49,845 bases of DNA from Kiritimatiellales bacterium (GCA_021734665.1 JAIPIN010000002.1:1-49845), one strand, 5' to 3'. Counted from the stretch's first letter, positions 23,037-48,905 are shown. The notes: generated by a model from the letters alone, not told the origin. Numbers and translations: made by a program.

Positions 23037-23782
23037 ACGTATTCAGCGAATTTAGGTGAAATTCGATTAAAAATTACGCTTCCCACACCGTAAACCACCA
23101 ATGCAAAACAAGCAAAAATTCCGAGTAAAAGTAAGTCTGGTACTCTGGAATAAACAAGAACATCTCGCGATAATTCAATGGAATAAAACATTGGATTAAA
23201 CATGCTAACCTTTTCACCTGGTCCTCCCGGATGCAACATATAAAAAATAGGTGTTGCAAACCACCACGCACGCATTAGCACAGACCATACCTGTCCCAGA
23301 TCACGAAATATAAAATGCAAAGAAGAAAGCATGAGGCCAACACCAAACGTAAATATAAATTGAAATGCGAGAAGAATAGGAAAAAACAATGCTGTTACAG
23401 ATAAGGACCCATTATAAATAAGAAATACCGACAACAGCAGAAGTTCAAAAATATGCGAGAAAAAAACATCCAGTACTACCGATAAAACAATGTGCCTTTT
23501 ATTTACAGGCAAAGATTTAATAAGTGTAGCTTCTCCCATAACAGCATTAAGAGATTGCGATGTTGCAGCACTAAAGAAATTCCATACCACCACTCCCGTA
23601 AGAAGATACGAAGAATAATGCTCAATATTACTACCCAAACGCGCAGAAAAAACTAACAAGAGAATGATAAATGTTAACAATGGTCCCAACAAATACCAGA
23701 AAACACCCAAAAAACTCCCTTCGTTACGCAATTTGAAACGCGCTTTTGTCAGTTCGAAAATGAAATCAAAATTCTTATGCAT
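23033..23782 (-). CDS. ABC-2 type transporter permease (Wzm/TagG-like)
   Basis: 249 aa with six hydrophobic segments. The N-terminus ELTKARFKLRNEGSFLGVFWYLLGPL is typical of ABC-2 polysaccharide exporters. It is coupled to the ATPase gene. Confidence 0.85.
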   Translation of the reverse strand: MHKNFDFIFELTKARFKLRNEGSFLGVFWYLLGPLLTFIILLLVFSARLGSNIEHYSSYLLTGVVVWNFFSAATSQSLNAVMGEATLIKSLPVNKRHIVLSVVLDVFFSHIFELLLLSVFLIYNGSLSVTALFFPILLAFQFIFTFGVGLMLSSLHFIFRDLGQVWSVLMRAWWFATPIFYMLHPGGPGEKVSMFNPMFYSIELSRDVLVYSRVPDLLLLGIFACFALVVYGVGSVIFNRISPKFAEYV

Positions 23783-23985: not shown

Positions 23986-25575
23986 ATGTCTTGGGTTGAT
24001 CCGATAGTCGGCGAAATACAAGAGCGCCTTGCGGAAAAAATTGCGAGCAAGGAGCCACTCATTATTCGTGATGAAAAAACTCTATCAGGCAAAGTTCACG
24101 TAGGCTCACTACGCGGAATTGTAATTCATGGACTTATTGCACAAGCTCTAAACGAAAAAGGGATTGAGAATGATTTTAAATTTGAATTAAATGACTTTGA
24201 TCCAATGGACGGACTACCTGTATATGTAGACCAAAATGAATATAAGAAACACATGGGAAAACCATTATTTACAGTTCCATCTTTTGAACCAAATGCAGAA
24301 AACTATCCAATGGTGTTTGGTGATGAATTAAAAGAAGTAGTTCAGCCACTTGGGCTACCAATTGATTTTTACCGCTTGCGACCATTATATGAAGCTGGAA
24401 AATTTAATGACGTGATTACCGAATCTCTTGATCACGCCGAAGAAATTAGAACAATTTATCTGGAAGTAAGTGGCGGTGGTAAGCCAAACGATTGGTATCC
24501 ACTTAGTGTTGTATGTGAAAAATGTGGCAAGATAGGAACAACACAAGTAACCGATTGGAATGGCAAACAAGTGACGTATACCTGCAAGAAAGATTTAGTA
24601 GATTGGGCAGAAGGATGCGGACATGAGGGAAAATGCAGTCCATTTGATGGAAATGCAAAACTTCCTTGGAAAGTGGAATGGCCTGCCAAATGGAAAGTTC
24701 TTGGCGTGGATATAGAAGGTGCTGGAAAAGATCATGCTACCTCGGGAGGCTCGCGCGAAATTGCAGCAAGAATTTCTGAAGAAGTCTTTCATTATCCAAA
24801 TCCATTCGATATTCCTTACGAATTCTTTAACTTCCAAGGAAAAAAGATGAGTGCCAGCAAAGGCTTGGGGGCATCGGCAAAAGAGGTAGCAGACATGTTG
24901 CCACCAACAATGCTTAAACTGCTTATGATAAGAAAGCAACCCAATCAACCAATAGATTTTGATCCACAAGGAAAAACCATTCCAAATCTGTTTGATGAAT
25001 ATGATCGCCTTGCTGACCATTACTTTAAACGACATAAAGAACCATTCGAAGGATTCGCACGCACATTCCAACTCGCACATATTAATCCAGCCACGCCACC
25101 CGCAGATCTTTGGCAGATGCGCTTCACTGTATTAAGTTTTGTATTGCAAATGCCGCATTTAGATCTAGAAACCGAGGCTAGCAAGCTTAAGGGAGCTGCA
25201 CTAAATCAAGCTGAAAAGGAGAATCTCAAAGAAAGGGCGTTTTATGTAAGACAGTGGCTGGAAAACTACGCGCCCGACGAGTACAAGTACACGATTCTAT
25301 CCGAAGCACCTGCTGATCTAAACCTTGATGACGAACAGAAGAATGCACTAAAAGAACTTGAAAAGGCTCTATCTGACGAAACATTGCAATGGGAGGGACC
25401 TGCTATTCATGAGTGTATTCATAAAGTAAAAGAAGCAACTGGCATTGAACCAAAAAAGATATTTCAACCTCTTTATCAGATCTTCCTAGGACGTGATCGT
25501 GGGCCGCAAGTGGGGTGGTTTTTGAGTACTTTTTCGCGCGCAGACATGATACAAAGACTAGCCGCCATTTCATGA
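23986..25575 (+). CDS. lysK: lysine--tRNA ligase, class I (archaeal type)
   Basis: 529 aa. The HIGH-region equivalent is SGKVHVGSLRG, KMSKS is present as KMSASKG, and the internal Cys cluster is CEKCGKIGTTQV...CKKDLVDWAEGCGHEGKC. Confidence 0.85.
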   Translation: MSWVDPIVGEIQERLAEKIASKEPLIIRDEKTLSGKVHVGSLRGIVIHGLIAQALNEKGIENDFKFELNDFDPMDGLPVYVDQNEYKKHMGKPLFTVPSFEPNAENYPMVFGDELKEVVQPLGLPIDFYRLRPLYEAGKFNDVITESLDHAEEIRTIYLEVSGGGKPNDWYPLSVVCEKCGKIGTTQVTDWNGKQVTYTCKKDLVDWAEGCGHEGKCSPFDGNAKLPWKVEWPAKWKVLGVDIEGAGKDHATSGGSREIAARISEEVFHYPNPFDIPYEFFNFQGKKMSASKGLGASAKEVADMLPPTMLKLLMIRKQPNQPIDFDPQGKTIPNLFDEYDRLADHYFKRHKEPFEGFARTFQLAHINPATPPADLWQMRFTVLSFVLQMPHLDLETEASKLKGAALNQAEKENLKERAFYVRQWLENYAPDEYKYTILSEAPADLNLDDEQKNALKELEKALSDETLQWEGPAIHECIHKVKEATGIEPKKIFQPLYQIFLGRDRGPQVGWFLSTFSRADMIQRLAAIS

Positions 25576-25581
25576 CACGCC

Positions 25582-26361
25582 ATGTCATTACCAATACAAA
25601 CATCACAAACGCATCCTCATTATACGCGCTGTTGGTTTGTTATTTGTTTTCTGTCTCGTTGTGGTTCATCTCACTTAGTATCTCTTCTTAACAGTCATAA
25701 AAATATTGAGTGCTACTCAGAAGAATTCGCACCAGATCCACATGACGAAACCAAACGTACATTACACCTAACACCCGAAAGGGCACTGCAACGTATACAT
25801 AATATTTATGTAGAACATCCTCTCAGCTCCCATGCCGCTGGATTCAAATTTAAATATCCAGTCCAATTTGGGTTGTATCCAGAAATACATGATTACTTGT
25901 TGCAACACAAAGAACATTTGAAAATTATACAGTTAACACGCAAAAATAGTCTTAAGAGATATGTATCAAACATAAATGCAAAAAATCTCTTCAGCAAAGA
26001 AGGTAAATGGAATGCTTTCCAACACATTTCCGCAACACCACTACACATAGACATTGAAGAATGTAAACGATACATGGAAAATTATGAACAGAACGTCAAA
26101 CAATTAGATACTGCTATCAAAATATTTCCCAACAAACTCTCTATTACGTACGAAGATCTCTTTGAGAACCCCACAGAAACGCTGCGCACCATTTTGACCT
26201 TTCTGGGCGTATCAACAGATGAAAACCTCTCTTCACAAGTCCATAAATATACAACTGATGATCTTGCAAAAGCTGTATCGAATATTGAAGAAGTACAAGC
26301 AGCGTTGTATGGTACGAAATGGCAGGTTTTTCTCCCAAAATCTGCCCCAATCAAAAAATAA
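25582..26361 (+). CDS. NodH/Stf0-like sulfotransferase
   Basis: 259 aa. The PAPS 5'-phosphate loop-like motif is ICFLSRCGSSHLVSLLNSH and the 3'-phosphate motif-like segment is IIQLTRKNSLKRYVSNI. The C-terminal ITYEDLFENPTETLRTILTFLGV follows the layout I recall for NodH. Confidence 0.65.
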   Translation: MSLPIQTSQTHPHYTRCWFVICFLSRCGSSHLVSLLNSHKNIECYSEEFAPDPHDETKRTLHLTPERALQRIHNIYVEHPLSSHAAGFKFKYPVQFGLYPEIHDYLLQHKEHLKIIQLTRKNSLKRYVSNINAKNLFSKEGKWNAFQHISATPLHIDIEECKRYMENYEQNVKQLDTAIKIFPNKLSITYEDLFENPTETLRTILTFLGVSTDENLSSQVHKYTTDDLAKAVSNIEEVQAALYGTKWQVFLPKSAPIKK

Positions 26362-26402: not shown

Positions 26403-28205
26403 ATGCTACGATACAAAGTGATGATCAAAAAAGACAATCAAAGCGCCCAAACAATCAAAAATTCTTTGAGTGTACTACATGGTGAATGTTTGTTTACAAG
26501 TGAAAATCAGACAAGACAATTGGAAGATAAAATCGCTTCGAGTGAAGCAAAACTACAACAAGAAATCACAAAGAACAAACTATACGAAGCACGACTTCAG
26601 GAGCTTGAGGCAAAACGTAAGAATCACGAAGAGCGCATACAAGAACAAGAAGCAAAACTCGCAGAAACAAAACAAGATTTGATACAAGTAATTTCTACGC
26701 GCAGTTGGCAATGGACAAAATGTCTACGTGCAGCAGAAGCATGGATAAGGAGAAAAAAGAATATACCCGATACTCAACCACCACACTCTCCACAATCCAA
26801 ATCTACAATAGATGTTGCAGTAATTATAACCTCTCACAATTACGGAAAATTTTTGGTAAACGCAATCGACAGTATCCTTCGCCAATCATGCAAGCCTGCA
26901 GAAATTCTAGTAATGGACGATGCGTCAACAGATAACACATCGGATATTGTACAGCGATACATTAATCATGGAATACGATACGTACGTTGTAAGCACCTGC
27001 ATCCTTCACCAACGCGGAATGAAGGAGCTAGTCTGACACGTGCACCATTTTTGGTATTCCTAGATGCCGATGACATATTGCAAGAAGACTTTTTAGAAAA
27101 GTGCTATGCCCAGATGAAAGATCCATCAGTCGCAATTACATATGGAGATATGCAATACTTTGGGCTTGAGAATCACTTATTCAAGGCACCAGAATTTGAC
27201 CGCGAAAGATTGATGCGCACGAACTACATGTCATCACACTCAATGATCAGAAGACAGGCATTTGATATTACAGGTGGGTATCGCCGCTATAGTTTTCCGG
27301 CAGAAGATTGGGATTTGTATCGTAGAATTCTGCAATATAAATGGACTGCCAAAAAAGCACAGACAAAAGTTCTATACCGAATCCATGGAACCAATCGCCT
27401 ACCTAAATGCAAAGATGATGAATACTGGAAAATAATTAATTTGCTTCAAAATCCTATTACTATCTTCACACCATTTGCTGGAAGACACGATGTATTTGAG
27501 CGCTACATAGAAGGACTCAAGAATATTGAATTCGACCATAAACTTATTCGTCTGCATTGGCTGGATACAAGTGGCGATGAAAAATTTGGACGTATGTTGC
27601 GCGAGACCATGAGCACACTGGATTTTGGACGGACAACTTACACGTGCTCTCCTCTTCCTTCAATCTGGAACCACACGCCTCAAACACTAATAGAAAACCG
27701 GTTCAGTGATCCAAAAGCCGGACAATACTATGACATGGCACTAGCCTATGCATACAATCATTTATTGCACACATGCGACACAGAATTTGCACTGACAGTA
27801 GAAGACGATATAGTTTTGAAACCCGATACAATTACCAGATTACTAAAAACAGTACAACATCACGACGTGACTGCTGTTATCGCTCCCTACCCATGCCAAA
27901 TACAAGGTTATCAAACAGTATGGATACAAGATAAAAACAACAATCCACAATTTATTACCAAAGCTCAAAAGGGAATATGGGAAGTTGGCGGTGGTGGATT
28001 CGGATGTACATTGATCCGCATGGATGTATTCAAACACACCCCGATCTATAGCAATGTACACCTACAAAAAAATCCACAATGGTATGACCACGTAGCCTTT
28101 GCACTGCTACGCAGGAAAGGCAAGGTACTCTGTAATTGGGATGCGTCCGTAGAGCACTTGGAAACAGATCGACACATTCCAGCAGGATACACCACTAAAA
28201 CATGA
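26403..28205 (+). CDS. coiled-coil / GT2 glycosyltransferase / second GT-A-like domain protein
   Basis: 600 aa. The helical N-terminus (KLQQEITKNKLYEARLQELEAKRKNHEERIQEQEAKLAETKQDL) ends in STRSWQWTKCLR. GT2 features are VAVIITSHNYGKFLVNAIDSILRQ..ILVMDDASTDNT and FLDADD. The second domain carries LTVEDDIV. Confidence 0.8.
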   Translation: MLRYKVMIKKDNQSAQTIKNSLSVLHGECLFTSENQTRQLEDKIASSEAKLQQEITKNKLYEARLQELEAKRKNHEERIQEQEAKLAETKQDLIQVISTRSWQWTKCLRAAEAWIRRKKNIPDTQPPHSPQSKSTIDVAVIITSHNYGKFLVNAIDSILRQSCKPAEILVMDDASTDNTSDIVQRYINHGIRYVRCKHLHPSPTRNEGASLTRAPFLVFLDADDILQEDFLEKCYAQMKDPSVAITYGDMQYFGLENHLFKAPEFDRERLMRTNYMSSHSMIRRQAFDITGGYRRYSFPAEDWDLYRRILQYKWTAKKAQTKVLYRIHGTNRLPKCKDDEYWKIINLLQNPITIFTPFAGRHDVFERYIEGLKNIEFDHKLIRLHWLDTSGDEKFGRMLRETMSTLDFGRTTYTCSPLPSIWNHTPQTLIENRFSDPKAGQYYDMALAYAYNHLLHTCDTEFALTVEDDIVLKPDTITRLLKTVQHHDVTAVIAPYPCQIQGYQTVWIQDKNNNPQFITKAQKGIWEVGGGGFGCTLIRMDVFKHTPIYSNVHLQKNPQWYDHVAFALLRRKGKVLCNWDASVEHLETDRHIPAGYTTKT

Positions 28206-31854: not shown

Positions 31855-32826
31855 ATGAGTTTAAAAAATAACACTCTTGGGCTCTTTGTAATTCTGCTTG
31901 TAGCCGAAGGAGTTGGAATAGCGTGGGAAGGTTTATGGTGGCAAGAGATTATTGATGCATATTCAATTTTTGGTGATCCTCCACAATTGCTATACCACAC
32001 TTCGATTTTGATTATGCTCTTGATAGCATTAAGAGAATCTCAAAAGCCACACCAAAAAATATGGGGAATAATCAGCATATTGCTAATACTGCTATTAATA
32101 AATATTCCTCTTACTTATTACGTAAATAGTATCTTTGGTGTTCCATCACGTTACGGACTCATAATTTATTGGGGAGCCCCTTATATATTTACTTCAATCT
32201 TCTCGATAGGCATTTGCATATTTCTATTAAAAATAATTAAGCAAAAATCATATAACAAATGGAACCCTCTTCTTCAATACGCAATTTATGCTTCAATTTT
32301 GATGCATCTACTTATTCGATTACGTCCATTTAGACCTACATCTACCGTACATGATGTAATTGGCTTCTGGGGACCAGGGGTGATAATTGCTGCATTTATT
32401 TTTGTTCTTCTATTTGCAAAAAAAACCATTGATTCAAAATACAGCGCAACCAAAACAACATTTGTAACACTTAGCCTTTATTCACTAATAGGATTACTAG
32501 GTATATGGACTTTCTCTATAGCCAAAATATCTGCCGAAATTTGGCAAAATATGCTTTTGGGCGGATTCACACATCCTCCGACTGTACTTAGTAGTCTTTC
32601 ACTTATTGTTTGTGCATTAATTATAGACATGAAGACATTTTCAGCTCGTATCAAAGTACTAATTGCCTCGGTAGTGCAAGCTGGACTTTTGTATGGAGCC
32701 GCCAACTTTTTTATTGCACCTGTTGCCTCTTATGGAAAATTAGAATTTTTAACTGCTGTAATTTCCGCTGCAATTGGAGGACTTATGGCTTATCAATTAT
32801 TTATTTTAAGTACTAAAAAAGTTTAG
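31855..32826 (+). CDS. polytopic membrane protein, function unknown
   Basis: 323 aa with about ten hydrophobic segments and no motif I recognise. It is divergent from the Lnt-like gene and 23 nt upstream of the deacetylase gene. Confidence 0.6.
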   Translation: MSLKNNTLGLFVILLVAEGVGIAWEGLWWQEIIDAYSIFGDPPQLLYHTSILIMLLIALRESQKPHQKIWGIISILLILLLINIPLTYYVNSIFGVPSRYGLIIYWGAPYIFTSIFSIGICIFLLKIIKQKSYNKWNPLLQYAIYASILMHLLIRLRPFRPTSTVHDVIGFWGPGVIIAAFIFVLLFAKKTIDSKYSATKTTFVTLSLYSLIGLLGIWTFSIAKISAEIWQNMLLGGFTHPPTVLSSLSLIVCALIIDMKTFSARIKVLIASVVQAGLLYGAANFFIAPVASYGKLEFLTAVISAAIGGLMAYQLFILSTKKV

Positions 32827-33680: not shown

Positions 33681-36600
33681 ATGGAAGTTTTCTGGCAACC
33701 AATCATCAGGCCGATCTTTGATATCCTATTGCCAAAGTCTGTTGTAGAAATTGGTATCGATAAAGGTGACAACACAAAACATTTGCTCGAATACTGCAAA
33801 AAACATAATGGATTCTTGCACGGCATTGACCCCGAACGAAATGAGATTACCTCTGCATTAGAAGCAGAATACTCACACTTTTTTAAATTTTATGAGGACC
33901 TAAGCCTAAATACACTGCCAAAACTCGAATCATATGATGCAATTTTAATCGACGGTGATCACAATTGGTACACCGTATATCACGAACTGATCCTAATTGA
34001 GAAATGTGCACAGAAACAAGGCACGTTCCCAATGGTATTTATTCACGATGTTGGGTGGCCATACGGCAAACGTGATATGTATTTCAATGCAGAAATTATC
34101 CCAGAAAAATACCGCCAAATGCACAAGAAAGGAGGGTTGCAAATAGACAATGGCATCCCACAGGATAATAACGGATTCAATGCACACTTTGACCATGCAT
34201 TGTATGAGCATGGCATTCAAAATGGAGTGCTATCCGCAATGGAAGACTTTTTGAAACAAACAGAATTTAATCTTACAAGTACTGTTATTCTTGGTTTTCA
34301 TGGATTAGGAATTTTGTGTGATAAAAAAATATTGGATTCTAATTCCCAACTTAAAAAATTACTTAATGGTCTGGATTGCCCACAAGAACTTAAATCCGCA
34401 ACTATTGCCGTTGAGCAAGATCGCATAAAACAGATCATATATAATAATGAATTGTTGCAAACATGTTCTCATACAAGAAGACAGCTTGAAAACGAACAGA
34501 GGGAGAAGCAGGAAAGAGAACTCATGGAGAAACAAGAACAAGAACTGAGGGAGAAACAAGAACAAGAACTGAGGGAGAAGCAGGAAAGAGAACTCAGGGA
34601 GAAACAAGAACAAGAACTGAGGGAGAAGCAGGAAAGAGAACTCAGGGAGAAACAAGAACAAGAACTGAGGGAGAAGCAGGAAAGAGAACTCAGGGAGAAA
34701 CAAGAACAAGAACTGAGGGCGAAACAAGAACAAGAACTGAGGGAGAAGCAGGAAAGAGAACTCAGGGAGAAACTCGAAAGAGAACTTAAAGACAAAGAAG
34801 CCCAACAAGTACTATGGACTGGTGAACGAAAACAGATACTTAAAAATCTAGATCAAATTAAAATGGAGAATTCCGCCAATAAAGAACGATTAATACAAAG
34901 AAAAAGGCTAATGGAAGAAAATAGGACTATGTATATAAGACAAATTACTAATCTAGAAATTAATAATAAAAACAAGCTCGAAGAAGAGCGTTCTAAGAAT
35001 CAAAATCACACAACCGAGTTGGAAGAAATTATTACACAAGAAGTTCAAAAAAATGCGATTCTTAGCCGAGACATACAACACATTCTTAAGAGTAAGAGCT
35101 GGCGTTGGACACATTTCTTACGTGTGTTAGATAAAATTCTTAAATGGCCTAGAACAAAAAAGCCTTTATATTGGCTTTGTGCCAATTTAAAAGATATTTG
35201 GACAGATTTCGATGAGCCATTTCCAAAACTCGTTCGTTTTATCCGACACAATATACTGGGCTGCTGGCTTCCATCTGATACACAAAATGCAGTACAGCCA
35301 ATTCAGGGGGATGCAATCTTCTACAATGATAAATATCTATCAACTCTAAATACACTTAAACAGAAAGATCTTCAGCAGAGCAATGAAGCAGTTAATAACA
35401 TGCATTGGCTGCCATCAATACACATTGTAATATTTGTAGAACTGCTTGATGAAATTAGATTGCGCAAAACACTTAACTCTATTGTGGAACAAACCTACTA
35501 CAACTGGAATATAACAGTGCTAGATGCTTCTAAGAGCTACACAAGCGTACAAAGCATTGTAAAAGATTACTCCATACACTATCCAGAAAAAATCAAGTAC
35601 ATAAGACAGCATGCCAATCAGAACCCACACATAGAAGCCATAGAAAACAACAAAAGTACATATGTATCATTTATGGATAGTACAAATACCCTACAGCATG
35701 ACGCACTTGAACGCTTGTTCACTGCAGCCATTGAAGAGGCAAATCTGCCCGATCTTATTTATAGTGATCATGATGAATTACACTGCTCGAACGCATCGGA
35801 ATACACACCTGTATTCAAACCCGGATGGAGCCCAGAATTGCTTCTGTCATATAATTACATAGGAGCATTTTTTCTCATAAAACACTCCATGCTTCTAAAA
35901 TGCATAGATAATACAAATATTCAAGAACAAGAAACCTTTGCATATGATCTTCTTCTAAGAATTGCAGAACATGATCCTGCTGCAATACATATACCACAAG
36001 TGCTCTGGCGCCAGAGCAAATCATTTGTAATTACTTCTCAGAGAATAGAAGCGCATCGCTCAACCCTACAAAAAGCATTGGCCAGAAGAGGCCTAAAACA
36101 CAGAATAGAATATGGTGAGTACGCACAAAAACACAATGAAATATTTTTCTCAATTAAATCCAACTTCAGCGCTAAAGAGGAGCCAACCGTTACAATAATA
36201 ATCCCAACAAAGGATCGCGCTGAAATGCTAAAAAATTGTATTAACTCAATAACAAAAAAAACCGACTACAAACGATATAAAATCTTAATTGTTGATAATG
36301 GAAGCGAGGAATTGGCAACAAAGAATTATCTACAATCACTTACACACACTGTGCTAAAATTAGAAACTAAACAATTTAACTTTGCATATATTAATAACCG
36401 AGCTGTTCAAAACACGGACACAGAACTGTTGCTTTTCCTTAATAATGACACAGAAATCCTTAATGAAGGGTGGTTACGAGAAATGGTCGGCACAATGTCA
36501 CTCGATAAGAATATTGGCGCAGTAGGCTCTAAGTTACTCTATCCAGAAGGAGCATTCCCGTACCGCGTACAAAGCGCAGGAGCGATATTAGGTAGGCATT

Positions 36601-37079
36601 GGTCAAGTCTAGTAAAATTTAAAACTGAAGAAGAATTGGGTTATGGCTTTTATAACCACGTCATGCGCAATTGCGCCATAGTAAGTGGATCGTGCATGCT
36701 CACAAAACGAAATCTATTTGCAAAGGTTGGAGGATTCGACACAGAGAAATTTGGCATTGATTTTAATGATGTAGATTATTGTTTGAAGCTTATGCAAGAA
36801 GGATATCGCACTGTTTGGACACCACATGCTCGGATACTCCATCATCTATCCGCTAGCCGTGGTAGTAACAACGGGCTTGGCGCAAACGTAGTTACAAAAG
36901 AATCAAAAGCATTCGAAAGAAAATGGGGATGGCTATTCGGACACGATCCGTATTACAACTGTAATTTTTCATTAGATATTCAAGATGATGCGTTTACACC
37001 ACGAACACGCTCTTCTTTTCGATCACCATACACACAATCACATTCTCGCAACACTTCGTCGACAATAAACTCAATTTGA
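33681..37079 (+). CDS. multidomain protein: class I SAM methyltransferase (Methyltransf_24-like), long ER/K-rich helix plus coiled coil, and two GT2 domains
   Basis: 1132 aa. The methyltransferase part has VVEIGIDKGDNTKHLLEY...ILIDGDHNWYTVYHEL. The repeat is (EKQE[RQ]ELR)x12 and the linker motif is SKSWRWTHFLR. GT2-1 has IHIVIFVELLD...SFMDS. GT2-2 has VTIIIPTKDRAEMLKNCINS..ILIVDNGS..FLNNDTE. Confidence 0.85.
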   Translation: MEVFWQPIIRPIFDILLPKSVVEIGIDKGDNTKHLLEYCKKHNGFLHGIDPERNEITSALEAEYSHFFKFYEDLSLNTLPKLESYDAILIDGDHNWYTVYHELILIEKCAQKQGTFPMVFIHDVGWPYGKRDMYFNAEIIPEKYRQMHKKGGLQIDNGIPQDNNGFNAHFDHALYEHGIQNGVLSAMEDFLKQTEFNLTSTVILGFHGLGILCDKKILDSNSQLKKLLNGLDCPQELKSATIAVEQDRIKQIIYNNELLQTCSHTRRQLENEQREKQERELMEKQEQELREKQEQELREKQERELREKQEQELREKQERELREKQEQELREKQERELREKQEQELRAKQEQELREKQERELREKLERELKDKEAQQVLWTGERKQILKNLDQIKMENSANKERLIQRKRLMEENRTMYIRQITNLEINNKNKLEEERSKNQNHTTELEEIITQEVQKNAILSRDIQHILKSKSWRWTHFLRVLDKILKWPRTKKPLYWLCANLKDIWTDFDEPFPKLVRFIRHNILGCWLPSDTQNAVQPIQGDAIFYNDKYLSTLNTLKQKDLQQSNEAVNNMHWLPSIHIVIFVELLDEIRLRKTLNSIVEQTYYNWNITVLDASKSYTSVQSIVKDYSIHYPEKIKYIRQHANQNPHIEAIENNKSTYVSFMDSTNTLQHDALERLFTAAIEEANLPDLIYSDHDELHCSNASEYTPVFKPGWSPELLLSYNYIGAFFLIKHSMLLKCIDNTNIQEQETFAYDLLLRIAEHDPAAIHIPQVLWRQSKSFVITSQRIEAHRSTLQKALARRGLKHRIEYGEYAQKHNEIFFSIKSNFSAKEEPTVTIIIPTKDRAEMLKNCINSITKKTDYKRYKILIVDNGSEELATKNYLQSLTHTVLKLETKQFNFAYINNRAVQNTDTELLLFLNNDTEILNEGWLREMVGTMSLDKNIGAVGSKLLYPEGAFPYRVQSAGAILGRHWSSLVKFKTEEELGYGFYNHVMRNCAIVSGSCMLTKRNLFAKVGGFDTEKFGIDFNDVDYCLKLMQEGYRTVWTPHARILHHLSASRGSNNGLGANVVTKESKAFERKWGWLFGHDPYYNCNFSLDIQDDAFTPRTRSSFRSPYTQSHSRNTSSTINSI
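34503..34790 (+). repeat. in-frame tandem repeat of 12 x 24 nt (alternating A/B units giving a 48-nt period), encoding EKQERELR/EKQEQELR
   Basis: Counted unit by unit. Three consecutive 48-nt super-units are identical. Unit types differ at synonymous sites as well (aag/aaa, cag/caa, ctc/ctg). Confidence 0.95.
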
Positions 37080-38191: not shown

Positions 38192-38257
38192 AATATGATT
38201 ACATCCTACATACGCCATCGTGTACAATCAACAACCTTACATCGATCACATAACACA

Positions 38258-40965: not shown

Positions 40966-43593
40966 CTATCGAATTCCAACCAATTCAGAATATGATGATT
41001 CTTTACTTTCTATAATCGGAGATATAGCACCATTGGCAATTTTAGCCACATTCTTACCCGGAAAAGCTAGTAATCGAACTCCATTTAATTTCATTCTTTT
41101 CCAAAGCAATTTATCCTCATCATTAAGAGATACCTCCATAAATAATCGCCCAGATTCCACAATAGAACGATGTATAAGAGTAGCTTCTAATGGTATATCT
41201 AAAATATCTATTTCATTGCTTGATTTGTAAATTAACTTACTTTCACTATTTTCTATAGCATAATCACCATAAGCAATTGCGCATTGCTGATGCTTCATCT
41301 TAGGTAAAAGCCAACGAATTCGTTCTGGATCAAGCAGGCTAGATGCATTTAAGAAACAAAGTACGGGATACATATTAGCCAAATCACTATTAATATTAAG
41401 ACCCGCATTTTTTACAGTTGACTGCAAAGCATTCTTTGAACATTTTTTTGTACCACACCAATCTGCTGTACTTTCCGACAAATCAATTTGCATATTCGAT
41501 TCCAGATTATCACTCCATGTTACAATCCAGCTGAAACCATCTAATGCAGTATTAAGATTATCTATAAGCCCTATCGGTTGAACATCATTAGTTGCCCAAA
41601 GTACAACATGTATTCCTGGTAGCGGAATCCAATCCTCACCTCCGCCCCAAGAATGAACATACGGATACTTGCGACGCCATATAAGTATATTATGCTGATG
41701 TAATAAAGACTTAAAATGTGCCTTTTCATGACCAAATGATGCATGATTTTCATGAAGAACCTCAACATCATCAAGTCGTCCCCAAAATGCTCCTCTCTGT
41801 AAAGCACGATAAGACAAATCTGCTTCTTCTAATCCATATTTAGAAAATGCCTCATCTAACGGGCCTATACGATCAAGCCATTCACTATCCCAAATAACAC
41901 ATGTTGCAGGAACCGGAGAAGTTAAATATGTAAATTCATCCACGCGTGGTTTGCCCAATACAACGTTGTCTTTGTTTTTCTGAACAAGCCATGGCCCAAT
42001 ACATGACAAACGTTTTTCTTCTATAAAATATATCATTCTCCTAATCATTACAGGAGTCTGCAATATACAATCATCATTCAAAAACAATACATACTGTTCA
42101 TTTTTACGCTGTTCAAGTCCCCTATTAATAGAACGAGAAAAATTAAACGGACCAGGAAGATAAATAACCTGTGCATTGTGTTCTTTCGCAAGTAATTCGA
42201 TGTCTTCATTAGAACATTCATCTTCTGGACAAACAACAATAGTAATTGCAATACGAACGCCTTCGGCATTATCAAATACAGATTTTAAGCAACGTCGAAG
42301 CATTGGGCAATCTTGCCCATTAGTTGGTATAACTACTTGCACACTCCTATCTTTTTTTAAAGGAGAAGCAATATATGGATGATGCCATATATATTTAACT
42401 ATATCTGATGGTAGTTTCTTTTGTTCTTGCTTCACAGATTTTGCGATTTCATTTTTAGTTTTCTCTCTGTCACTTTTAGCCTTTTTACTGTCTCCAAAAA
42501 CATTAAGGAAAATACGCTTTTTTGTGCGCTTAATTAAAACATCTGCAAAACGAAGCCAAGATGTAAAACGCCAACTCTTTGAACGATGTATACGTTCAAG
42601 ATCTGCTTCTAGCCGTGCACAATGATCAAGTAACGATGGATCATTATATTCCGCATTTTTGGCAGACGATCTTTCGGATGCCAATTCCTGTGCAATTTTT
42701 TCCATCGTATCAAGAGCATTAAACAAAAGACTACTGCGCTCCTCTTCTCTTTTTGTATCAGCAGAATACTTGAGCGCAGGTGCCTGAAGCGGATCTAATA
42801 CAATAGAAAATTGATTCTGTTGCTCTGGAGTTGATCCGTAGGTTTGTGCAATATCGCATAATTCTTCCTGCGACAATGGATCCCCTGTTTTTAGTCGTTC
42901 AAAAAGCTCACGCCAATGCCACGCATCCTTATTTAATCCACGCACCAAGTTGCGCGGCCAGGACAATAGATTTTTTTTAGTTAACTGATTAATACTGCGC
43001 ACGGGAAAATGTGCAATTGCAAGATTATGTGCAATATCCAATGGATAGTGATAATGCTGCTTTAGCAACAGATTATGATTACCTTGAGATATAGCGATAT
43101 CTTCACGAGATGCAATTTTTGAAGACACAACTAATTTTGTAAGACAAGAATGAGGATCTGATAATCGGTGTTGTATGCGCCTAAGAATATTCACTTCACT
43201 AAGATCATCATTTGCAGTTGGTATGTAATTGTACCAAGGAAGTCGATATGAACTATCACCTTTTAATTGAGCAATTTCATCACTAACATCACCTTTCTTG
43301 CTGAACAGAAATTCATCCCCATCCAAAGGAACAATCCATTTAATATCTTGTCGCTTAGCAACCTCCTCCATGCATTCTGTGATCAATTCTGATTGTTTTT
43401 GGGCAATACCAGAAAAATTACATATATGGATTGGAAGGCCTTCCTTCTTCAATTTTTCTAATATGGCTTTTGTTTCATCATCACTATCATGATCAATGAT
43501 ATACATTTCATCCAAAATTCCCACATGATATCGCACAAAGGACTCTATTATGTCTTCCTCGTTACGAACCATGCTAATGGATACAATGCTCAT
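40966..43593 (-). CDS. three-module glycosyltransferase: N-terminal GT2-like (Glyco_tranf_2_4-type), helical linker, central GT2, C-terminal GT-A-like region
   Basis: 875 aa. The N-terminus is MSIVSISMVRNEEDIIESFVRYH..YIIDHDSDDET..PLDGDEF. The linker ends in RSKSWRFTSWLR. The central module has VQVVIPTNGQDCPMLRRCLKS..FLNDDC. Confidence 0.8.
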   Translation of the reverse strand: MSIVSISMVRNEEDIIESFVRYHVGILDEMYIIDHDSDDETKAILEKLKKEGLPIHICNFSGIAQKQSELITECMEEVAKRQDIKWIVPLDGDEFLFSKKGDVSDEIAQLKGDSSYRLPWYNYIPTANDDLSEVNILRRIQHRLSDPHSCLTKLVVSSKIASREDIAISQGNHNLLLKQHYHYPLDIAHNLAIAHFPVRSINQLTKKNLLSWPRNLVRGLNKDAWHWRELFERLKTGDPLSQEELCDIAQTYGSTPEQQNQFSIVLDPLQAPALKYSADTKREEERSSLLFNALDTMEKIAQELASERSSAKNAEYNDPSLLDHCARLEADLERIHRSKSWRFTSWLRFADVLIKRTKKRIFLNVFGDSKKAKSDREKTKNEIAKSVKQEQKKLPSDIVKYIWHHPYIASPLKKDRSVQVVIPTNGQDCPMLRRCLKSVFDNAEGVRIAITIVVCPEDECSNEDIELLAKEHNAQVIYLPGPFNFSRSINRGLEQRKNEQYVLFLNDDCILQTPVMIRRMIYFIEEKRLSCIGPWLVQKNKDNVVLGKPRVDEFTYLTSPVPATCVIWDSEWLDRIGPLDEAFSKYGLEEADLSYRALQRGAFWGRLDDVEVLHENHASFGHEKAHFKSLLHQHNILIWRRKYPYVHSWGGGEDWIPLPGIHVVLWATNDVQPIGLIDNLNTALDGFSWIVTWSDNLESNMQIDLSESTADWCGTKKCSKNALQSTVKNAGLNINSDLANMYPVLCFLNASSLLDPERIRWLLPKMKHQQCAIAYGDYAIENSESKLIYKSSNEIDILDIPLEATLIHRSIVESGRLFMEVSLNDEDKLLWKRMKLNGVRLLAFPGKNVAKIANGAISPIIESKESSYSELVGIR

Positions 43594-43674: not shown

Positions 43675-44406
43675 TTATAATCCAACGGATTCAAGAATAT
43701 CCTTGAGCTCTTTTGGTGATAATTCACGAATCTGACCAGATTTTAGATTTGAATCTTTAAGGGTTGTAATACGAATACGCTTAAGCTCTTTTACAGGGCT
43801 ACCAACCTTCTGGCACATTCGTCTAATTTGCCGGTTTTTCCCTTCTGTTAGGGCTATATTAAATTTATCTTCGCTAATCCTACTGATAACAGTAGGCTTT
43901 GTCTTCTCACCAGAAATAGTCATTCCCTTCTCAAGTTTCCGCAAAGCCCCATCTTTAATCTCATTTTCTGTTATCACTTCGTATTCCTTTTCGTGATCAA
44001 ATTTAGGATGTGTAAGCCTATATGCAAGCACACCATCATTTGTAAGCAATAATAAACCTGATGATTCTTTGTCCAGACGTCCAACGGGATACACTTTTCC
44101 TTGGAGATTTTTGGGGAGAAGATCCCTAATCGTTTGCGATTCGTTTCGCGTTACGCGTAACGCGTTACGTTCAAAATTAGTAGTTACTACCCCCTTAGGT
44201 TTATTCATCACAAAATAAAACATCTCTTTACGATCTTCCAGAACCTTTCCATCAACTTCTACTTTATCAAATTCTGGATCTGCTTTTTGGCCAATTTCAG
44301 CTACTTTGCCATTCACTTTTACAAGGCCTTGTTCGATATACTCCTCAGCTTTACGACGAGAACAAATACCTTGGGCCGACAGAATCTTTTGTATGCGTTC
44401 CTGCAT
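43675..44406 (-). CDS. pseudouridine synthase, RsuA/RluB family, with an S4 domain
   Basis: 243 aa with ERIQKILSAQGICSRRKAEEYIEQGLVKVNG and the catalytic motif GRLDKESSGLLLLTNDG. Confidence 0.9.
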   Translation of the reverse strand: MQERIQKILSAQGICSRRKAEEYIEQGLVKVNGKVAEIGQKADPEFDKVEVDGKVLEDRKEMFYFVMNKPKGVVTTNFERNALRVTRNESQTIRDLLPKNLQGKVYPVGRLDKESSGLLLLTNDGVLAYRLTHPKFDHEKEYEVITENEIKDGALRKLEKGMTISGEKTKPTVISRISEDKFNIALTEGKNRQIRRMCQKVGSPVKELKRIRITTLKDSNLKSGQIRELSPKELKDILESVGL

Positions 44407-44517: not shown

Positions 44518-47500
44518 TTAACTCTTTTGTGTCCTTTTCCTGCGCATCCACCCAAAACCACCAGCAGCCCCAACCGCAATAACCGCAATAGCTCCTGGAC
44601 CTGTATCACCTACTGGAGATTGAGACACGACCACTGGGGCCAATGCTGCATATGGAAGAGCTGAATGAAGAGGCTGTAGATTTGCACTCACTGGATAAAC
44701 CACTGGCTTCTGCGGCATGCTAGTGTGCACTGATGCAACAACAGCTTCTTTTTTCTTATCTTCCTCCTCTTTATTACAAGAACTACTGCATCCATCAGTG
44801 GAAAGAAGATTCCCATCATCGCATGTTTCTCCTGGATCTAAAATGCCGTCTCCACAACGCGGAAGAATACAATCTGATCTGCAAGTAGAACCAACCTTAT
44901 CGCTATTATGTGTCCCATCATCACATTGTTCACCATCATCAATTTGACCATTTCCACATAATGCAATTACTTTACAATTTCTTGTGCATATATAAGGCGG
45001 TACACCCTTAAAAGTAAATGGTTCACATTCTTCTCCAAGTTGCCTCTGAATAATCCTGTCACCACAGAAACCAATTTCATTAATACAAACAGAAGAACAA
45101 CCATCAAAATTTATTTGATTACCATCATCACATTCTTCATTCATATCAACTTTGCCATCTCCACACATTTGTAATGATGCCACTTGACCTGCATCAAATT
45201 GGCAATAAGATGAACATCCATCGTCTTCAAATAAATTACCATCGTCACATTGTTCGCCCATTTCAATTTTATTATTTCCACAAACTGGCTCCTTTGGCTC
45301 ATTAATTTTGCGATTTTTACACTCATGATTACATGTCATTGTATCTGGCGGTTCACATTCTTCACCTTTATCCACTTGTCCATCCCCACAAAATAACACT
45401 GGCTCTAAATAATCATCGCCATAATCATTATTGAGCGCATAATGCACAACATCGATTATTATGCAGTCACTATTACATACATTTGTATTTGGTGGTTCAC
45501 ATTCTTCATCAGAATCTATATACCCATCTCCACAGAAAGGTAACGAATCATCGTCATCTGAAATATCATCATCGTCCGAAGTAAGTATTTTGCATTGATT
45601 ACTGCATTTATTTGCCCTTGGAGGATCACATTCTTCATTTGAATCTATATGTCCATCCCCACAAAATGGATAAGAGTCATCGTCATCGTCATCAGGCACA
45701 TCAATATGCCTACACCATGCATCGCAAGTATTTGTCCCTGGAGGCTCACATTCTTCACCAGAACTTACTCGTCCATTTCCACAAATCGGACTCTTTGGAA
45801 TGCATGTACATTCATTATCACATCTCCATCCAGAATCACACTGAGAATCGTTTTCACATTCTTCAGTTCTTGCGTTAAATTTATTATCTCCGCAATACCC
45901 AGGATCATCATCGTCATCATCTGATGTAGTAATTGACTGACATGCAAAATCGCATGTAAAAATACCAGGAGGCTCACATTCTTCACCTGGGTCAATAAAT
46001 CCATCTCCACAATAGTTCTCTTCTTCTGCATAACAAGTAGATGAACATCCATCGTTATTAACAACGTTACCGTCATCACATTCTTCAAAAACATTCCAAA
46101 GATATCCATCGCCACACACGGCAAAATTGCAAACATTAGTACAATAATCCGTATTGGAATTATTTCCATCATCACAATCTTCTCCAAGATCTACATTGCT
46201 ATCTCCACAGGCTGTAGAAATTTCTTGCATACAAAGCGCAGAACACCCATCGCCATCCACTATATTTCCATCATCACATTCTTCAAATTCAGAAAATATA
46301 AACCAATCTCCGCATGAGGCATCTTTACAGAAATTAGTACAATTATCACTATTTAGCTTATTCCCATCATCACATTCCTCTCCAGGATCTTTTTCCCCAT
46401 CTCCACAAGTTGGTGCTACTTCTATTGTACAAAGAGGAGAACATCCATCATCACCATCAGTATTATGATCATCACACTCTTCCATGCCATTCCATAAATA
46501 AGAATCACCACATTCGGCGCTAAAACATGAATTTAAACATGCATCGTTGTTAGACTGATTACCATCATCACATTGCTCTTCTCCATCCCAAGTATACCCA
46601 TCCCCGCATTCGGCATTATTACATGTATTCATACAAGAATCCGTGTTAGACGAATTTTCATCGTCACATTCTTCCCCAGGATCTACAATTCCATTTCCAC
46701 ATAATTCATTAATTTCATGCAAACAAATTGAAGAACATCCATCTTCATTATCTTCATTGCCATCATCACACTCCTCAACATCAATCCAGATATGATGATC
46801 ACCACAAATAGCATTCTCACATGCATTGGTGCAAGCATCAGTGTTTAGCGGGTTACCATCATCACACTCCTCAAAATCATCCCAAATATACCCATCTCCG
46901 CATTCGGCATAATTACATTCATCAGTGCAATAATCTGTATTAATTGAATTACCATCATCACATTCTTCTCCTTCTTCTGGTATTCCATTACCACAATCAG
47001 GATCAATTTCTGTTGTACATAATGAAGAGCAGCCATCACCATCTTCTGTATTTTCATCATCACATTCTTCTTCGCCATCCCAAGTATGCCCATCTCCACA
47101 ATCAGCATTGTTACACGAATTTAAACATGCATCTGTATTAGACTGGTTGCCATCATCACATTCTTCTTCGCCAATCCAAGTGTAATCATCTCCGCATTCG
47201 GCATCATTACATTCGTTTGTACAAGCATCTGTATTAGACTGATTACCGTCATCGCATTCTTCTCCTTCTTCTGGTATTCCATTGCCACAATCAGGATCAA
47301 TTTCTGTTATACATAATGAAGAACAGCCATCACCATCTTCTGTATTTTCATCGTCACATTCTTCTGTAAGCCCACTAATATGACCACACATATTAGTAAA
47401 ACCATCTCCACAATAAGGCAATTTACAATCCGCATTACACTTATAATCAAAACATTCGGTACCAAAGAACTCTCCGTTCATAGCACCTAAATCACATTCT

Positions 47501-48744
47501 TCTCCTTCTTCTGGTATTCCATTACCACAATCTGGCGCCGAAGGAAGCATGCAATCATTACTACATTCATCATCATCAATACCGTTACCGTCGTCACATT
47601 CTTCTAAAATACCATCATGATTTGGAGAAGTGACAACTTCATCACCACATACAAGATTGCAATAAAGATTGTCGCAAATACAAATTCCAGACATTGACAT
47701 ATCACATCTGTCAGCTTCTAATTCACAACCATCAAATGTACAAACATCCATACCTCCATCAGTAAGTTTTTTGACACAAACCATATCACTGGGACAATCT
47801 GGGCTTGGTACTGGTCCATCATTTAATGATGTACAAGGAATATCTGTATATTCGTATTTATAAGCACATTCATAATAAGTGTCAGGCCCTTCTCTTTTTC
47901 GCTCACAATAAGTACCTAATGGGCAATTCCCATCACCCAAACACCTTAATCCTGTCCAGTCTAGAGTATCTGTTGCGCACACCTTTCCAAAATCACATTC
48001 CTCGTGCATGCCATTGTCTTGCTCTGGATAAGCCTCCTGAACAATGCCATCCCCACAATATTCCAATTCACAATTAAAATTACATCCATCATTATCTAGC
48101 ATTTCGCTACGCCCCCGCGGCGACTCTAGTGGATCACCATCATCACATTGCTCATAAAATCCATCACTATTAGGAGACTGGACTTCACCATCACCACATA
48201 TCCCTGCAAATGGTTCAAAACCATAACACTCAGACCAAGAATTAATATTTGGATTAGCATTCCCACATTCAATCTGACCAGTTCCTCCATAAGCTATTAC
48301 CGATGCCAAGCCTTCCGGAGGAGAACCTACAACCCAGTCGCTAGTTTTAATAAAACATCTTTCGCCACTTATGCACTGGCTACTGCATGCATCACAAGGA
48401 TCTACTCTAGGAACTGCGTCGCAATCAGACTTAAGAGCCAATCCACCCACACTATCTGGGTAAGAGCATGTTGCAGTATTTGATCCATATTGGATGTAAC
48501 AATGTGCTCCTGTTCTACAGGGTAACCCCTGACAATTATCACAACAATCTCTGTCACAAGTATTTAATTCTCCTAATTCACACTTATTATTTCCACATAC
48601 TGAAGTCGTGTTAGGGGTATAACTTACAAGTGCGCTGCCTTCATAAGATAGATTTTTAGAAGTTACAACTGCCACTCCTATAAGGAGTAAAACAATTACT
48701 ACAGAACCAATTTTGATATGGGTTTTTATCATGAATTTTTCCAT
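44518..48744 (-). CDS. giant cysteine-rich repeat surface protein (Myxococcus-type Cys-rich repeat / DUF4215-like) with an N-terminal signal anchor and C-terminal membrane anchor
   Basis: 1408 aa. There are dozens of copies of CG(D/N)Gx(4-8)(G)EECD(D)GNx(4-5)D(G/A)Cx(3-4)C. Poly-Asp linkers are present. The N-terminus is KIGSVVIVLLLIGVAVV and the C-terminus is GAIAVIAVGAAGGFGWMRRKRTQKS. Confidence 0.85.
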   Translation of the reverse strand: MEKFMIKTHIKIGSVVIVLLLIGVAVVTSKNLSYEGSALVSYTPNTTSVCGNNKCELGELNTCDRDCCDNCQGLPCRTGAHCYIQYGSNTATCSYPDSVGGLALKSDCDAVPRVDPCDACSSQCISGERCFIKTSDWVVGSPPEGLASVIAYGGTGQIECGNANPNINSWSECYGFEPFAGICGDGEVQSPNSDGFYEQCDDGDPLESPRGRSEMLDNDGCNFNCELEYCGDGIVQEAYPEQDNGMHEECDFGKVCATDTLDWTGLRCLGDGNCPLGTYCERKREGPDTYYECAYKYEYTDIPCTSLNDGPVPSPDCPSDMVCVKKLTDGGMDVCTFDGCELEADRCDMSMSGICICDNLYCNLVCGDEVVTSPNHDGILEECDDGNGIDDDECSNDCMLPSAPDCGNGIPEEGEECDLGAMNGEFFGTECFDYKCNADCKLPYCGDGFTNMCGHISGLTEECDDENTEDGDGCSSLCITEIDPDCGNGIPEEGEECDDGNQSNTDACTNECNDAECGDDYTWIGEEECDDGNQSNTDACLNSCNNADCGDGHTWDGEEECDDENTEDGDGCSSLCTTEIDPDCGNGIPEEGEECDDGNSINTDYCTDECNYAECGDGYIWDDFEECDDGNPLNTDACTNACENAICGDHHIWIDVEECDDGNEDNEDGCSSICLHEINELCGNGIVDPGEECDDENSSNTDSCMNTCNNAECGDGYTWDGEEQCDDGNQSNNDACLNSCFSAECGDSYLWNGMEECDDHNTDGDDGCSPLCTIEVAPTCGDGEKDPGEECDDGNKLNSDNCTNFCKDASCGDWFIFSEFEECDDGNIVDGDGCSALCMQEISTACGDSNVDLGEDCDDGNNSNTDYCTNVCNFAVCGDGYLWNVFEECDDGNVVNNDGCSSTCYAEEENYCGDGFIDPGEECEPPGIFTCDFACQSITTSDDDDDDPGYCGDNKFNARTEECENDSQCDSGWRCDNECTCIPKSPICGNGRVSSGEECEPPGTNTCDAWCRHIDVPDDDDDDSYPFCGDGHIDSNEECDPPRANKCSNQCKILTSDDDDISDDDDSLPFCGDGYIDSDEECEPPNTNVCNSDCIIIDVVHYALNNDYGDDYLEPVLFCGDGQVDKGEECEPPDTMTCNHECKNRKINEPKEPVCGNNKIEMGEQCDDGNLFEDDGCSSYCQFDAGQVASLQMCGDGKVDMNEECDDGNQINFDGCSSVCINEIGFCGDRIIQRQLGEECEPFTFKGVPPYICTRNCKVIALCGNGQIDDGEQCDDGTHNSDKVGSTCRSDCILPRCGDGILDPGETCDDGNLLSTDGCSSSCNKEEEDKKKEAVVASVHTSMPQKPVVYPVSANLQPLHSALPYAALAPVVVSQSPVGDTGPGAIAVIAVGAAGGFGWMRRKRTQKS

Positions 48745-48819: not shown

Positions 48820-48905
48820 GTATTGAGTATTAAGTATCTAGTATTTAGGGTCATTAAAGACAAATTGCCTAAATACGGAATACTAGATACTAAATACTAA
48901 TATTG
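48820..48905. other. hairpin/word-repeat spacer (family B) overlapping the stop of the SLH gene
   Basis: gtattgagtattaagtatctagtatttaggg faces cctaaatacggaatactagatactaaatac. It shares word blocks with 8539-8624. Confidence 0.4.

Follow-up and report, generated by a model that had tools for sequence, protein, structure and literature searches.

In Escherichia coli O9a and Klebsiella pneumoniae O3, the spacer length of WbdD sets the modal chain length of the glycan (PMC11231755, PMC5082667). K. pneumoniae O7 ORF6, which has been dissected biochemically, carries a methyltransferase-containing terminator, a coiled coil and two GT2 glycosyltransferase (GT) modules on one chain, and this terminator-on-coiled-coil strategy has been called widespread (PMC11231755). 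In the S-layer glycan pathway of Geobacillus stearothermophilus NRS 2004/3a, WsaE joins an N-terminal 2-O-methyltransferase, which provides the cap, to two rhamnosyltransferase domains (PMC2943079, PMC3898925, PMC9415975). Multiprotein polymerase complexes have been described for K. pneumoniae O4 and O7 (PMC11231755), and in all characterised terminated systems a carbohydrate-binding module (CBM) at the C terminus of Wzt reads the cap and gates export. Here, we analyse a 49,845-nt stretch of DNA labelled Kiritimatiellales bacterium (GCA_021734665.1 JAIPIN010000002.1:1-49845), hereafter the window, in which one open reading frame (ORF) at 33681..37079 on the plus strand places a methyltransferase, a long helix and two GT modules on one chain.

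We read this ORF as a terminator and ruler plus one catalytic polymerase subunit of a Wzm/Wzt-dependent cell-surface glycan pathway, an assignment that draws on sequence, structure models and analogy and that we hold with moderate confidence. An earlier note on the same DNA had proposed an all-in-one polymerase, ruler and terminator. The methyltransferase fold, the long helix and the tandem GT-A domains do lie on a single polypeptide; the protein is probably not all-in-one, because the motifs of its first GT module are eroded and two other GT proteins of the cluster share its junction motif.

The ORF is single and intact, begins with ATG and encodes 1132 amino acids (aa), and homologue alignments begin at its residue 1. 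The order of a Methyltransf_24-like domain, a helix, the motif SKSWRWTHFLR and two GT2 domains holds by Pfam, NCBIfam and AlphaFold2 (AF2). The full-length AF2 model, built with 44 homologues, has a mean predicted local distance difference test score (pLDDT) of 76 and a predicted TM-score (pTM) of 0.50, and comprises in order an alpha/beta domain at residues 1-230 (pLDDT > 90), helices, a disordered linker, the GT-A modules at about 580-830 and 837-1055, and a disordered tail. A whole-protein homology search returned 80 matches, a number limited by the E/K/Q repeat described below, and the closest homologues (45-47% identity) are annotated as Candidatus Peregrinibacteria. The corresponding sequence search of the PDB matched only the low-complexity repeat (9hcj, a WD40-like protein) and was uninformative. 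The ORF is laid out as follows:

33681..37079, plus strand: whole ORF of 1132 aa, with methyltransferase, helical spacer, junction, GT-A module 1 (degenerate) and GT-A module 2
33681..34376, plus strand: predicted class I S-adenosylmethionine (SAM)-dependent methyltransferase domain, cation-dependent O-methyltransferase-like, aa 1-232 (Pfam, conservation, AF2, Foldseek)
34383..35087, plus strand: predicted helical spacer, aa 235-469 (AF2, composition)
34503..34790, plus strand: tandem repeat, 12 x 24 nt = 8 aa, aa 275-370 (Tandem Repeats Finder, unit table)
35091..35267, plus strand: junction, or putative "foot", SKSWRWTHFLR at aa 471-481 plus LKDIWTDFDEPFPKLVRFIRH (motif conservation, amphipathicity)
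35418..36170, plus strand: GT-A (GT2) module 1, aa 580-830, probable pseudo-glycosyltransferase (fold, motif comparison)
36171..36938, plus strand: GT-A (GT2) module 2, aa 831-1086, probable active transferase by sequence (PF00535, motifs, AF2)
36939..37079, plus strand: disordered C-terminal tail, aa 1087-1132 (pLDDT < 50)

The last 100 nt of the ORF (36980-37079) form a convergent 3'-3' overlap with a minus-strand GT4 gene. On the side of the ORF the overlap falls within the disordered tail, and the orthologous locus L003 keeps a 26-nt overlap.

The N-terminal 232 residues, the METHYLTRANSFERASE domain, are common to 72 of the 80 homologues across very different architectures. Methyltransf_24 (PF13578) matches aa 22-123 at 47.1 bits, against a Pfam cut-off of 26.3. 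Among 17-44 relatives, E23, G25 and G29 of SAM motif I and D50, the acidic residue after beta-2, are invariant or nearly so, as are D91-G-D93-H94-N95-W-Y and H122-D123. The domain profile gives a weak match (E = 0.003) to CCoAOMT-type, cation-dependent class I O-methyltransferases, with their metal/base motif VDADKxNY aligned on IDGDHNWY of the window protein. Modelled alone, the domain reaches a pLDDT of 91.3 and a pTM of 0.90 with alternating beta/alpha elements, and its best Foldseek matches in the PDB are PaMTH1 (E = 2e-7 against the SAM-bound structure), a CCoAOMT-like protein, TrmR and the mycobacterial sugar methyltransferase MeT1. WbdD was absent from both the PDB sequence searches and the top 50 Foldseek matches of this model, and no kinase domain was found in the ORF with Pfam. 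By profile, conservation and model, the N-terminal domain has a class I SAM-methyltransferase fold resembling the metal-dependent O-methyltransferases, and the SAM-binding fold on which the proposed terminator depends is thereby present by Pfam, AF2 and Foldseek alike. Relatives of the domain occur in at least 586 GTDB species, from groups including Peribacteria, Syntrophales, Desulfobacterales, Rubrobacteraceae, Firmicutes, Planctomycetota and Methanobacteriaceae, and a single Firmicutes homologue used as the query returned 1231 relatives at E <= 1e-30; judged by these searches, the domain family is very widespread. Within the ORF the domain occupies the helix end farthest from the GT modules, and by analogy its activity would be a terminating one.

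The C-terminal half of the protein matches the dual-GT-A polymerases K4CP, PmHS2 and LARGE1 over about 530-600 columns with Foldseek, and Glycos_transf_2 (PF00535) is found in two stretches, the better at 838-1015 (Pfam) and the other at about 593-760 (NCBIfam). The tandem polymerase-type GT-A fold that the earlier note had described is supported by these model comparisons; the canonical catalytic motifs are another matter, with the DxD and acceptor motifs found in module 2 and lost from module 1. In module 2, VTIIIPTKD, VDNGSE, LNNDTE, DFNDVDYCLK, HHxSxSRG and DPYY are kept in all tandem-bearing homologues, and LNNDTE presents the NxD form, aligned to the DAD of PcManGT (6YV7). From its motifs, module 2 is probably an active transferase. 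In contrast, module 1 reads IFVEL, LDASKS, MDSTN, YSDHDE and FAYD where the canonical forms are PVYN, DDxS, LDHDD, YSDEDK and QDYD, and its FMDSTN stands opposite FVDSDD of GalT1 (5HEA). Canonical module 1 motifs are present in the tandem outgroups P0016, P0027, P0035 and P0075 and in the Peribacteria loci L007 and L031, while the window protein and its closest orthologues read MDSTN, LQTED and LRSTD at the DxD position, mutually non-conserved. Module 1 is probably a pseudo-glycosyltransferase, by this motif comparison, kept for structure or acceptor binding.

Between the methyltransferase and the GT modules, AF2 predicts helices at 235-372 and 376-469, separated by a low-confidence break at about 367-383 that holds the sole glycine, G381. 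The helical spacer of the earlier note is upheld by this prediction, with about 235 aa in place of the roughly 210 aa given there, and SKSWRWTHFLR indeed ends it. The model shows helix rather than disorder (repeat pLDDT about 80), and proline and glycine make up 0-3% of the spacer, with none in the repeat segment. The repeat consists of 12 units of EKQE[QR]ELR, each 24 nt long, over about 96 aa. There are two unit types, of 5 and 4 copies, and the edge units have diverged (EKQERELM, AKQEQELR and EKLERELK); the A/B order is irregular. We judge the 12-fold expansion to be recent because the DNA copies of each unit type are 100% identical, synonymous sites included. Two antisense ORFs across this segment, 34359-34808 (minus strand, 149 aa) and 34469-34795 (minus strand, 108 aa), are low-complexity mirror artefacts of the repeat and were discarded.

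Single alpha-helices (SAHs) of the ER/K type are rich in E, K and R, free of P and G and dense in i->i+4 pairs of opposite charge, and they have no hydrophobic seam. Such helices serve as spacers that are semi-rigid and grow in length in proportion to the number of residues, as in myosin VI/X and engineered ER/K linkers, and we know of no description of an ER/K helix as part of a glycan chain-length ruler. Residues 269-372 of the window protein are 65% E/K/R and 14% core hydrophobic, contain no P or G and hold 14-16 such pairs per 28 aa, with a heptad power of about 0.01. The earlier note had presented the helix as a ruler by analogy with coiled coils, an analogy that our heptad metric does not bear out. 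On this crude measure of a/d occupancy, GCN4 (z = 3.4) and tropomyosin (z = 12.9) reach 0.86-0.88 as controls, and the window spacer shows no heptad seam (occupancy 0.25-0.56, z <= 0.8). The repeat alone has hydrophobic residues at 22-25% of a/d positions (z = -1.4, on the same crude metric), and no hydrophobic seam forms because its one Leu per 8 residues rotates by about 80 degrees per unit. By heptad and SAH metrics that are both crude, a coiled coil is not demonstrated for the spacer, and the repeat at aa 275-370 looks like an ER/K single alpha-helix in its sequence signature, which would make it helical as a monomer.

A conventional oligomeric coiled coil, dimeric or trimeric as in WbdD and WbbB, could instead run through the whole spacer, the ER/K signature then being an artefact of the metric. 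The coiled coil has been called a "characteristic marker" of the strategy (PMC11231755), several relatives have a significant heptad signal (some with occupancy 0.80 and z = 4.2, the highest value), and repeats in relatives' spacers have periods of 7, 11, 14 or 28 aa. However, the a/d hydrophobicity of the window repeat is far from the 86-88% of the controls, a single Leu per 8 residues is unable to build a seam, the segment is dense in potential salt bridges, and the 8-aa period is atypical among the 18 repeats found in the family. We consider a coiled coil throughout unlikely, and retain the ER/K-type helix as the better description of this segment.

The distance from the end of the methyltransferase to the SWRxT motif is 266 aa in the window protein versus 140-210 aa in 12 relatives, and by sequence comparison the repeat array accounts for the excess. 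No ER/K-like stretch longer than 63 aa was found in the relatives examined. At 1.5 A per residue, the repeat would add about 14 nm relative to the closest orthologues, and the whole spacer, if collinear, could span about 35 nm; for comparison, WbdD spans about 20 nm, or about 200 A (PMC5082667).

We surveyed 115 distinct ORFs bearing the methyltransferase, from 164 loci, taking the 300 aa after the methyltransferase domain as the spacer. Their spacers contain 18 in-frame DNA tandem repeats, or 1.89 per 10 kb, versus 13 in 1.41 Mb (0.09 per 10 kb) elsewhere in the 164 loci, an enrichment of about 20-fold. All but one of the 18 (17/18) have a period of 21, 42, 84 or 33 nt, that is 7, 14, 28 or 11 aa, periods that preserve coiled-coil register; the 8-aa unit of the window is an outlier. 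Many of the repeats are 95-100% identical between copies, and the spacers that bear them include those of L153, L154, L008, L033, L009, L084, L122 and L068. The closest orthologue, P0002 (= L003/L085), has a perfect 18-aa duplication of its own in the spacer. A rapidly switching contingency locus was considered and found no support, since two independent strain pairs of 99.8-99.9% identity have identical copy numbers. In-frame spacer repeats would offer a simple evolutionary route to altered glycan length, and the 8-aa ER/K expansion would be the natural counterpart of engineered WbdD insertions, by way of a different helix type.

The same survey bears on whether the long array is an assembly artefact, with its copy number inflated or collapsed and the real spacer as ordinary as those of the orthologues. 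The units are perfectly identical over 288 nt, beyond typical short-read k-mers, and the search for conspecific contigs that could confirm the copy number found none, the best matches reaching 34-44% among genome contigs and 55% in the methyltransferase domain among metagenome contigs. Against an artefact, the array is in frame, with the diverged edge units and irregular A/B order typical of real arrays; independent assemblies of relatives show similar perfect in-frame repeats in 18 spacers, and copy number is reproduced in the two strain pairs. We regard an artefact as decidedly improbable.

The spacer ends in a junction whose motif, [ST][KR]SW[RKQ]xT..[LF]R, always follows a helical segment and belongs to no Pfam family. 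Across 1.56 M residues of locus ORFs the motif was matched 50 times, versus about 0 in shuffled sequences. In the AF2 model three short helices cover 472-529, and of all 18-mers in the protein the two with the strongest amphipathic character, 476-493 and 505-522, both fall in this stretch; no transmembrane helix is predicted in the ORF. The junction corresponds in position to the membrane-binding and polymerase-recruiting region of WbdD (PMC11231755, PMC5082667), and from this analogy we infer a "foot" close to the membrane, which may in addition bring several GT proteins together. Three multi-GT proteins of the window cluster carry the motif, namely the ORF itself and two candidate partners:

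26403..28205, plus strand: 600-aa protein with a short N-terminal helix, the junction motif STRSWQWTKCLR at about aa 99, and GT2 modules
40966..43593, minus strand: 875-aa protein with two GT2-type domains and the junction motif SKSWRFTSWLR at about aa 338

Four other loci (L005, L040, L043 and L076) likewise have the motif in two or three ORFs each. This sharing of a sequence motif suggests a multiprotein polymerase of which the ORF is one part, and SKSW[RK]xT could help to find, in a gene cluster, every protein that belongs to a polymerase-terminator complex.

Fold, motif and context are what was observed directly, and from them we infer every activity in the following scheme. GT-A module 2 would extend a lipid-linked glycan together with a GT4 pair and the two junction-motif GT proteins, while module 1, having lost its nucleotide-sugar and metal motifs, would probably act as a scaffold or acceptor-binding module. 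The spacer of about 235 residues would project the metal-dependent O-methyltransferase away from the polymerase, such that only sufficiently long chains reach it, and O-methylation of the non-reducing end would stop elongation. The 96-aa ER/K-type part of the spacer would lengthen this ruler by roughly 14 nm. Export would proceed through Wzm/Wzt, probably without a cap-reading CBM gate, and the glycan would probably be sulfated. The transporter genes and the adjoining sulfotransferase gene lie at the start of the glycan cluster:

20475..21317, minus strand: Sulfotransfer_2 protein, stand-alone paralogue of the Wzt C-terminal domain (36% identity, E = 2e-51)
21384..23036, minus strand: Wzt-like ATPase (aa ~40-245; PF00005) with a C-terminal sulfotransferase-like domain (aa 270-520)
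23033..23782, minus strand: Wzm-like ABC-2 permease (PF01061), 45% identical to the L003 Wzm

Of the 22 relatives' loci with flanks of 8 kb or more on each side, 17 carry a Wzm-like gene, and in Firmicutes members of the methyltransferase family wzm, wzt and the methyltransferase ORF are contiguous. We considered whether the C-terminal extension of the window Wzt might be a divergent CBM and ruled this out, as the extension is a clear paralogue of the adjacent sulfotransferase and its motifs for binding 3'-phosphoadenosine 5'-phosphosulfate (PAPS) are intact. Fusion of Wzt to a sulfotransferase was found in none of the 164 related loci (0/164). The fused domain suggests, by sequence, that the product is sulfated.

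Several observations weigh against a capping ruler. No CBM was detected on the window Wzt even at E <= 10, Sulfotransfer_2/1 being the only matches; Wzt is short in 44 of 60 relatives and likewise in the orthologue loci. The absence of a CBM weakens a strict analogy with cap-gated export, and together with the short Wzt it is no less compatible with methylation inside the chain, or with length control coupled to export, than with capping. In the window we recognised neither nucleotide-sugar genes nor a polyprenyl-phosphate initiating transferase, a ligase or a LytR-CpsA-Psr (LCP) protein. The AF2 monomer (pTM 0.50) fits a collinear or a hairpin arrangement of helices 235-372 and 376-469, and a hairpin would shorten or abolish the ruler. 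Because methylation by WsaE does not depend in vitro on how long the chain is (PMC2943079, PMC3898925, PMC9415975), a fused methyltransferase alone is no proof of a ruler. The eroded motifs of module 1 suggest inactivity, short of proving it, and the copy number of the perfect 24/48-nt repeat over 288 nt may reflect short-read mis-assembly.

Some of these points also speak for a different arrangement, in which the methyltransferase decorates internal residues, a nucleotide-sugar or a lipid intermediate, the helix is a scaffold or oligomeriser of the GT complex, and chain length is set by export coupling as in K. pneumoniae O2a. A published account pairs CBM-less transporters with export-coupled length control, as would fit the window Wzt and the short Wzt of most relatives; the chain-length independence of WsaE fits as well, and the helix-plus-junction unit occurs also in GT proteins that have no terminator domain, as an assembly role would predict. 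However, the methyltransferase is always found on the far side of the helix from the GT modules, and the order of methyltransferase, spacer and GT is kept in hundreds of proteins, while the spacer is free to change in sequence and to grow through register-preserving repeats. Since this freedom is what a spacer, not a specific interface, would be expected to show, and all characterised proteins of this layout are terminators, we think a decorating methyltransferase rather unlikely and favour the terminator and ruler.

Building on the terminator and ruler, a more specific and doubtful proposal, which we advance tentatively, is that three things hold jointly: the ruler is in part a monomeric ER/K helix recently reset by expansion of the 24-nt repeat, rulers across the family evolve by in-frame duplication, and the CBM checkpoint has been replaced by a transporter-tethered sulfotransferase. 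If so, glycan length would be readily tunable and the chain would be modified by a sulfotransferase at the point of export.

The glycan cluster as a whole extends from 20.4 to 43.6 kb and encodes four GT2-type and three GT4 proteins and a polysaccharide deacetylase. Its remaining genes, and those that follow it, include:

23986..25575, plus strand: class I lysyl-tRNA synthetase within the cluster
25582..26361, plus strand: sulfotransferase (Sulfotransfer_3/1), with a counterpart upstream of the orthologue in L003/L004
30397..31731, minus strand: Lnt-like protein with a C-terminal CN-hydrolase domain
31855..32826, plus strand: 323-aa polytopic membrane protein with no Pfam match
36980-38227, minus strand, and 38108-39391, plus strand: divergent GT4 pair, syntenic beside the L003/L004 orthologue at 47-48% identity
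39413..40813, minus strand: beta-CASP RNase-J-like nuclease
43675..44406, minus strand: S4-domain pseudouridine synthase
44518..48744, minus strand: 1408-aa protein with eight DUF4215 repeats, candidate S-layer/surface protein
48897..49646, minus strand: S-layer homology (SLH)-domain protein, candidate S-layer/surface protein

Wzm/Wzt, the GT4 pair and a sulfotransferase are retained in the orthologue loci L001-L004. The beta-CASP and S4-pseudouridine synthase neighbours are kept in the Peregrinibacteria contigs L001/L002; the beta-CASP protein is 69% identical to its counterpart among the orthologue loci. By its closest homologues and shared neighbours, the locus has its affinity with Peregrinibacteria-like members of the candidate phyla radiation (CPR). 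To our knowledge, the envelope glycans of CPR bacteria, Peregrinibacteria among them, are essentially uncharacterised, and we found no literature linking Peregrinibacteria with terminator/ruler systems of this kind.

Housekeeping genes (those for the lysyl-tRNA synthetase, beta-CASP nuclease and pseudouridine synthase) are interspersed among the glycan genes. The DUF4215-repeat and SLH proteins, just past the cluster, may carry or bind the glycan. The window from 2.4 to 20.3 kb holds an S10/spc/alpha ribosomal operon (L3, L4, L2 ... SecY, Adk, MAP, S4, RpoA), which the glycan cluster directly adjoins, 19726-20340 (minus strand) being followed by the minus-strand gene at 20475..21317. A CAP (cysteine-rich secretory protein) domain protein is encoded at 9227-10408 (plus strand), on the opposite strand within the ribosomal region, and CAP-domain genes are found near beta-CASP in L001/L002 too.

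The two precedents cited in the earlier note, the WbdD ruler and the one-chain WbbB, agree with their published descriptions (PMC11231755, PMC5082667). What does not hold is the layout as a novel concept, for it is already represented by K. pneumoniae O7 ORF6, with experimental evidence, and by WsaE, with functional evidence. The design is known, and the unusual part of the window protein is its recently expanded charged helix repeat.

O7 ORF6 resembles the window protein in its order of methyltransferase, helix, GT2 and GT2, in its Wzm/Wzt cluster and in its reliance on stand-alone GTs to complete the polymerase. However, ORF6 has a kinase and an Ig-like CBM between the methyltransferase and the coiled coil, where the helix of the window protein begins at aa 235, straight after the methyltransferase, and leaves no space for such domains, and it adds methyl-phosphate, whereas the window protein has no kinase domain. 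The ORF6 methyltransferase has a glycine loop with G91/G93 and is CgnL-like, while that of the window has motif I at E23-G25-G29 and is CCoAOMT/PaMTH1-like; set apart by description, the two appear to belong to different families. Both GT2 modules of ORF6 are active, in contrast to the degenerate module 1 here, and ORF6 serves a Gram-negative lipopolysaccharide, in contrast to the CPR-like lineage of the window. WsaE is similar in architecture, wzm/wzt adjacency and monoderm envelope, and the Firmicutes relatives of the window methyltransferase share the order wzm, wzt and methyltransferase ORF. No match named WsaE was found among the top 120 with a Firmicutes homologue as the query, and WsaE differs in that both of its GT modules are active rhamnosyltransferases and no ruler role has been demonstrated for it.

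WbdD is comparable in principle: its long helical spacer, with a base that binds the membrane, keeps the capping domains at a distance from a membrane-bound polymerase. It is a terminator only, with WbdA as a separate polymerase, whereas in the window the methyltransferase and GTs share one chain. Its trimeric parallel coiled coil contrasts with a spacer that has no heptad seam and one ER/K-like segment, and its methyltransferase-kinase pair and CBM-bearing Wzt contrast with the absence of both a kinase and a Wzt CBM here. WbbB of K. pneumoniae O12 is alike in that a single polypeptide unites a terminator, a coiled coil and a pair of polymerising GTs, but its terminator is a GT99 beta-Kdo transferase and its other GTs are of other families, whereas the N terminus of the window protein has a SAM-methyltransferase fold; WbbB gave no PDB sequence match to the window protein. 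The window protein departs from these prototypes in methyltransferase type, in part of its spacer, in module 1, in the shared junction motif, in a Wzt without a CBM and in lineage. Set against the Klebsiella and E. coli prototypes, both the degeneracy of module 1 and the fusion of Wzt to a sulfotransferase are differences open to test, and the locus predicts a length-controlled, probably methyl-capped and sulfated CPR polymer built by the logic of O-antigen and S-layer glycans.

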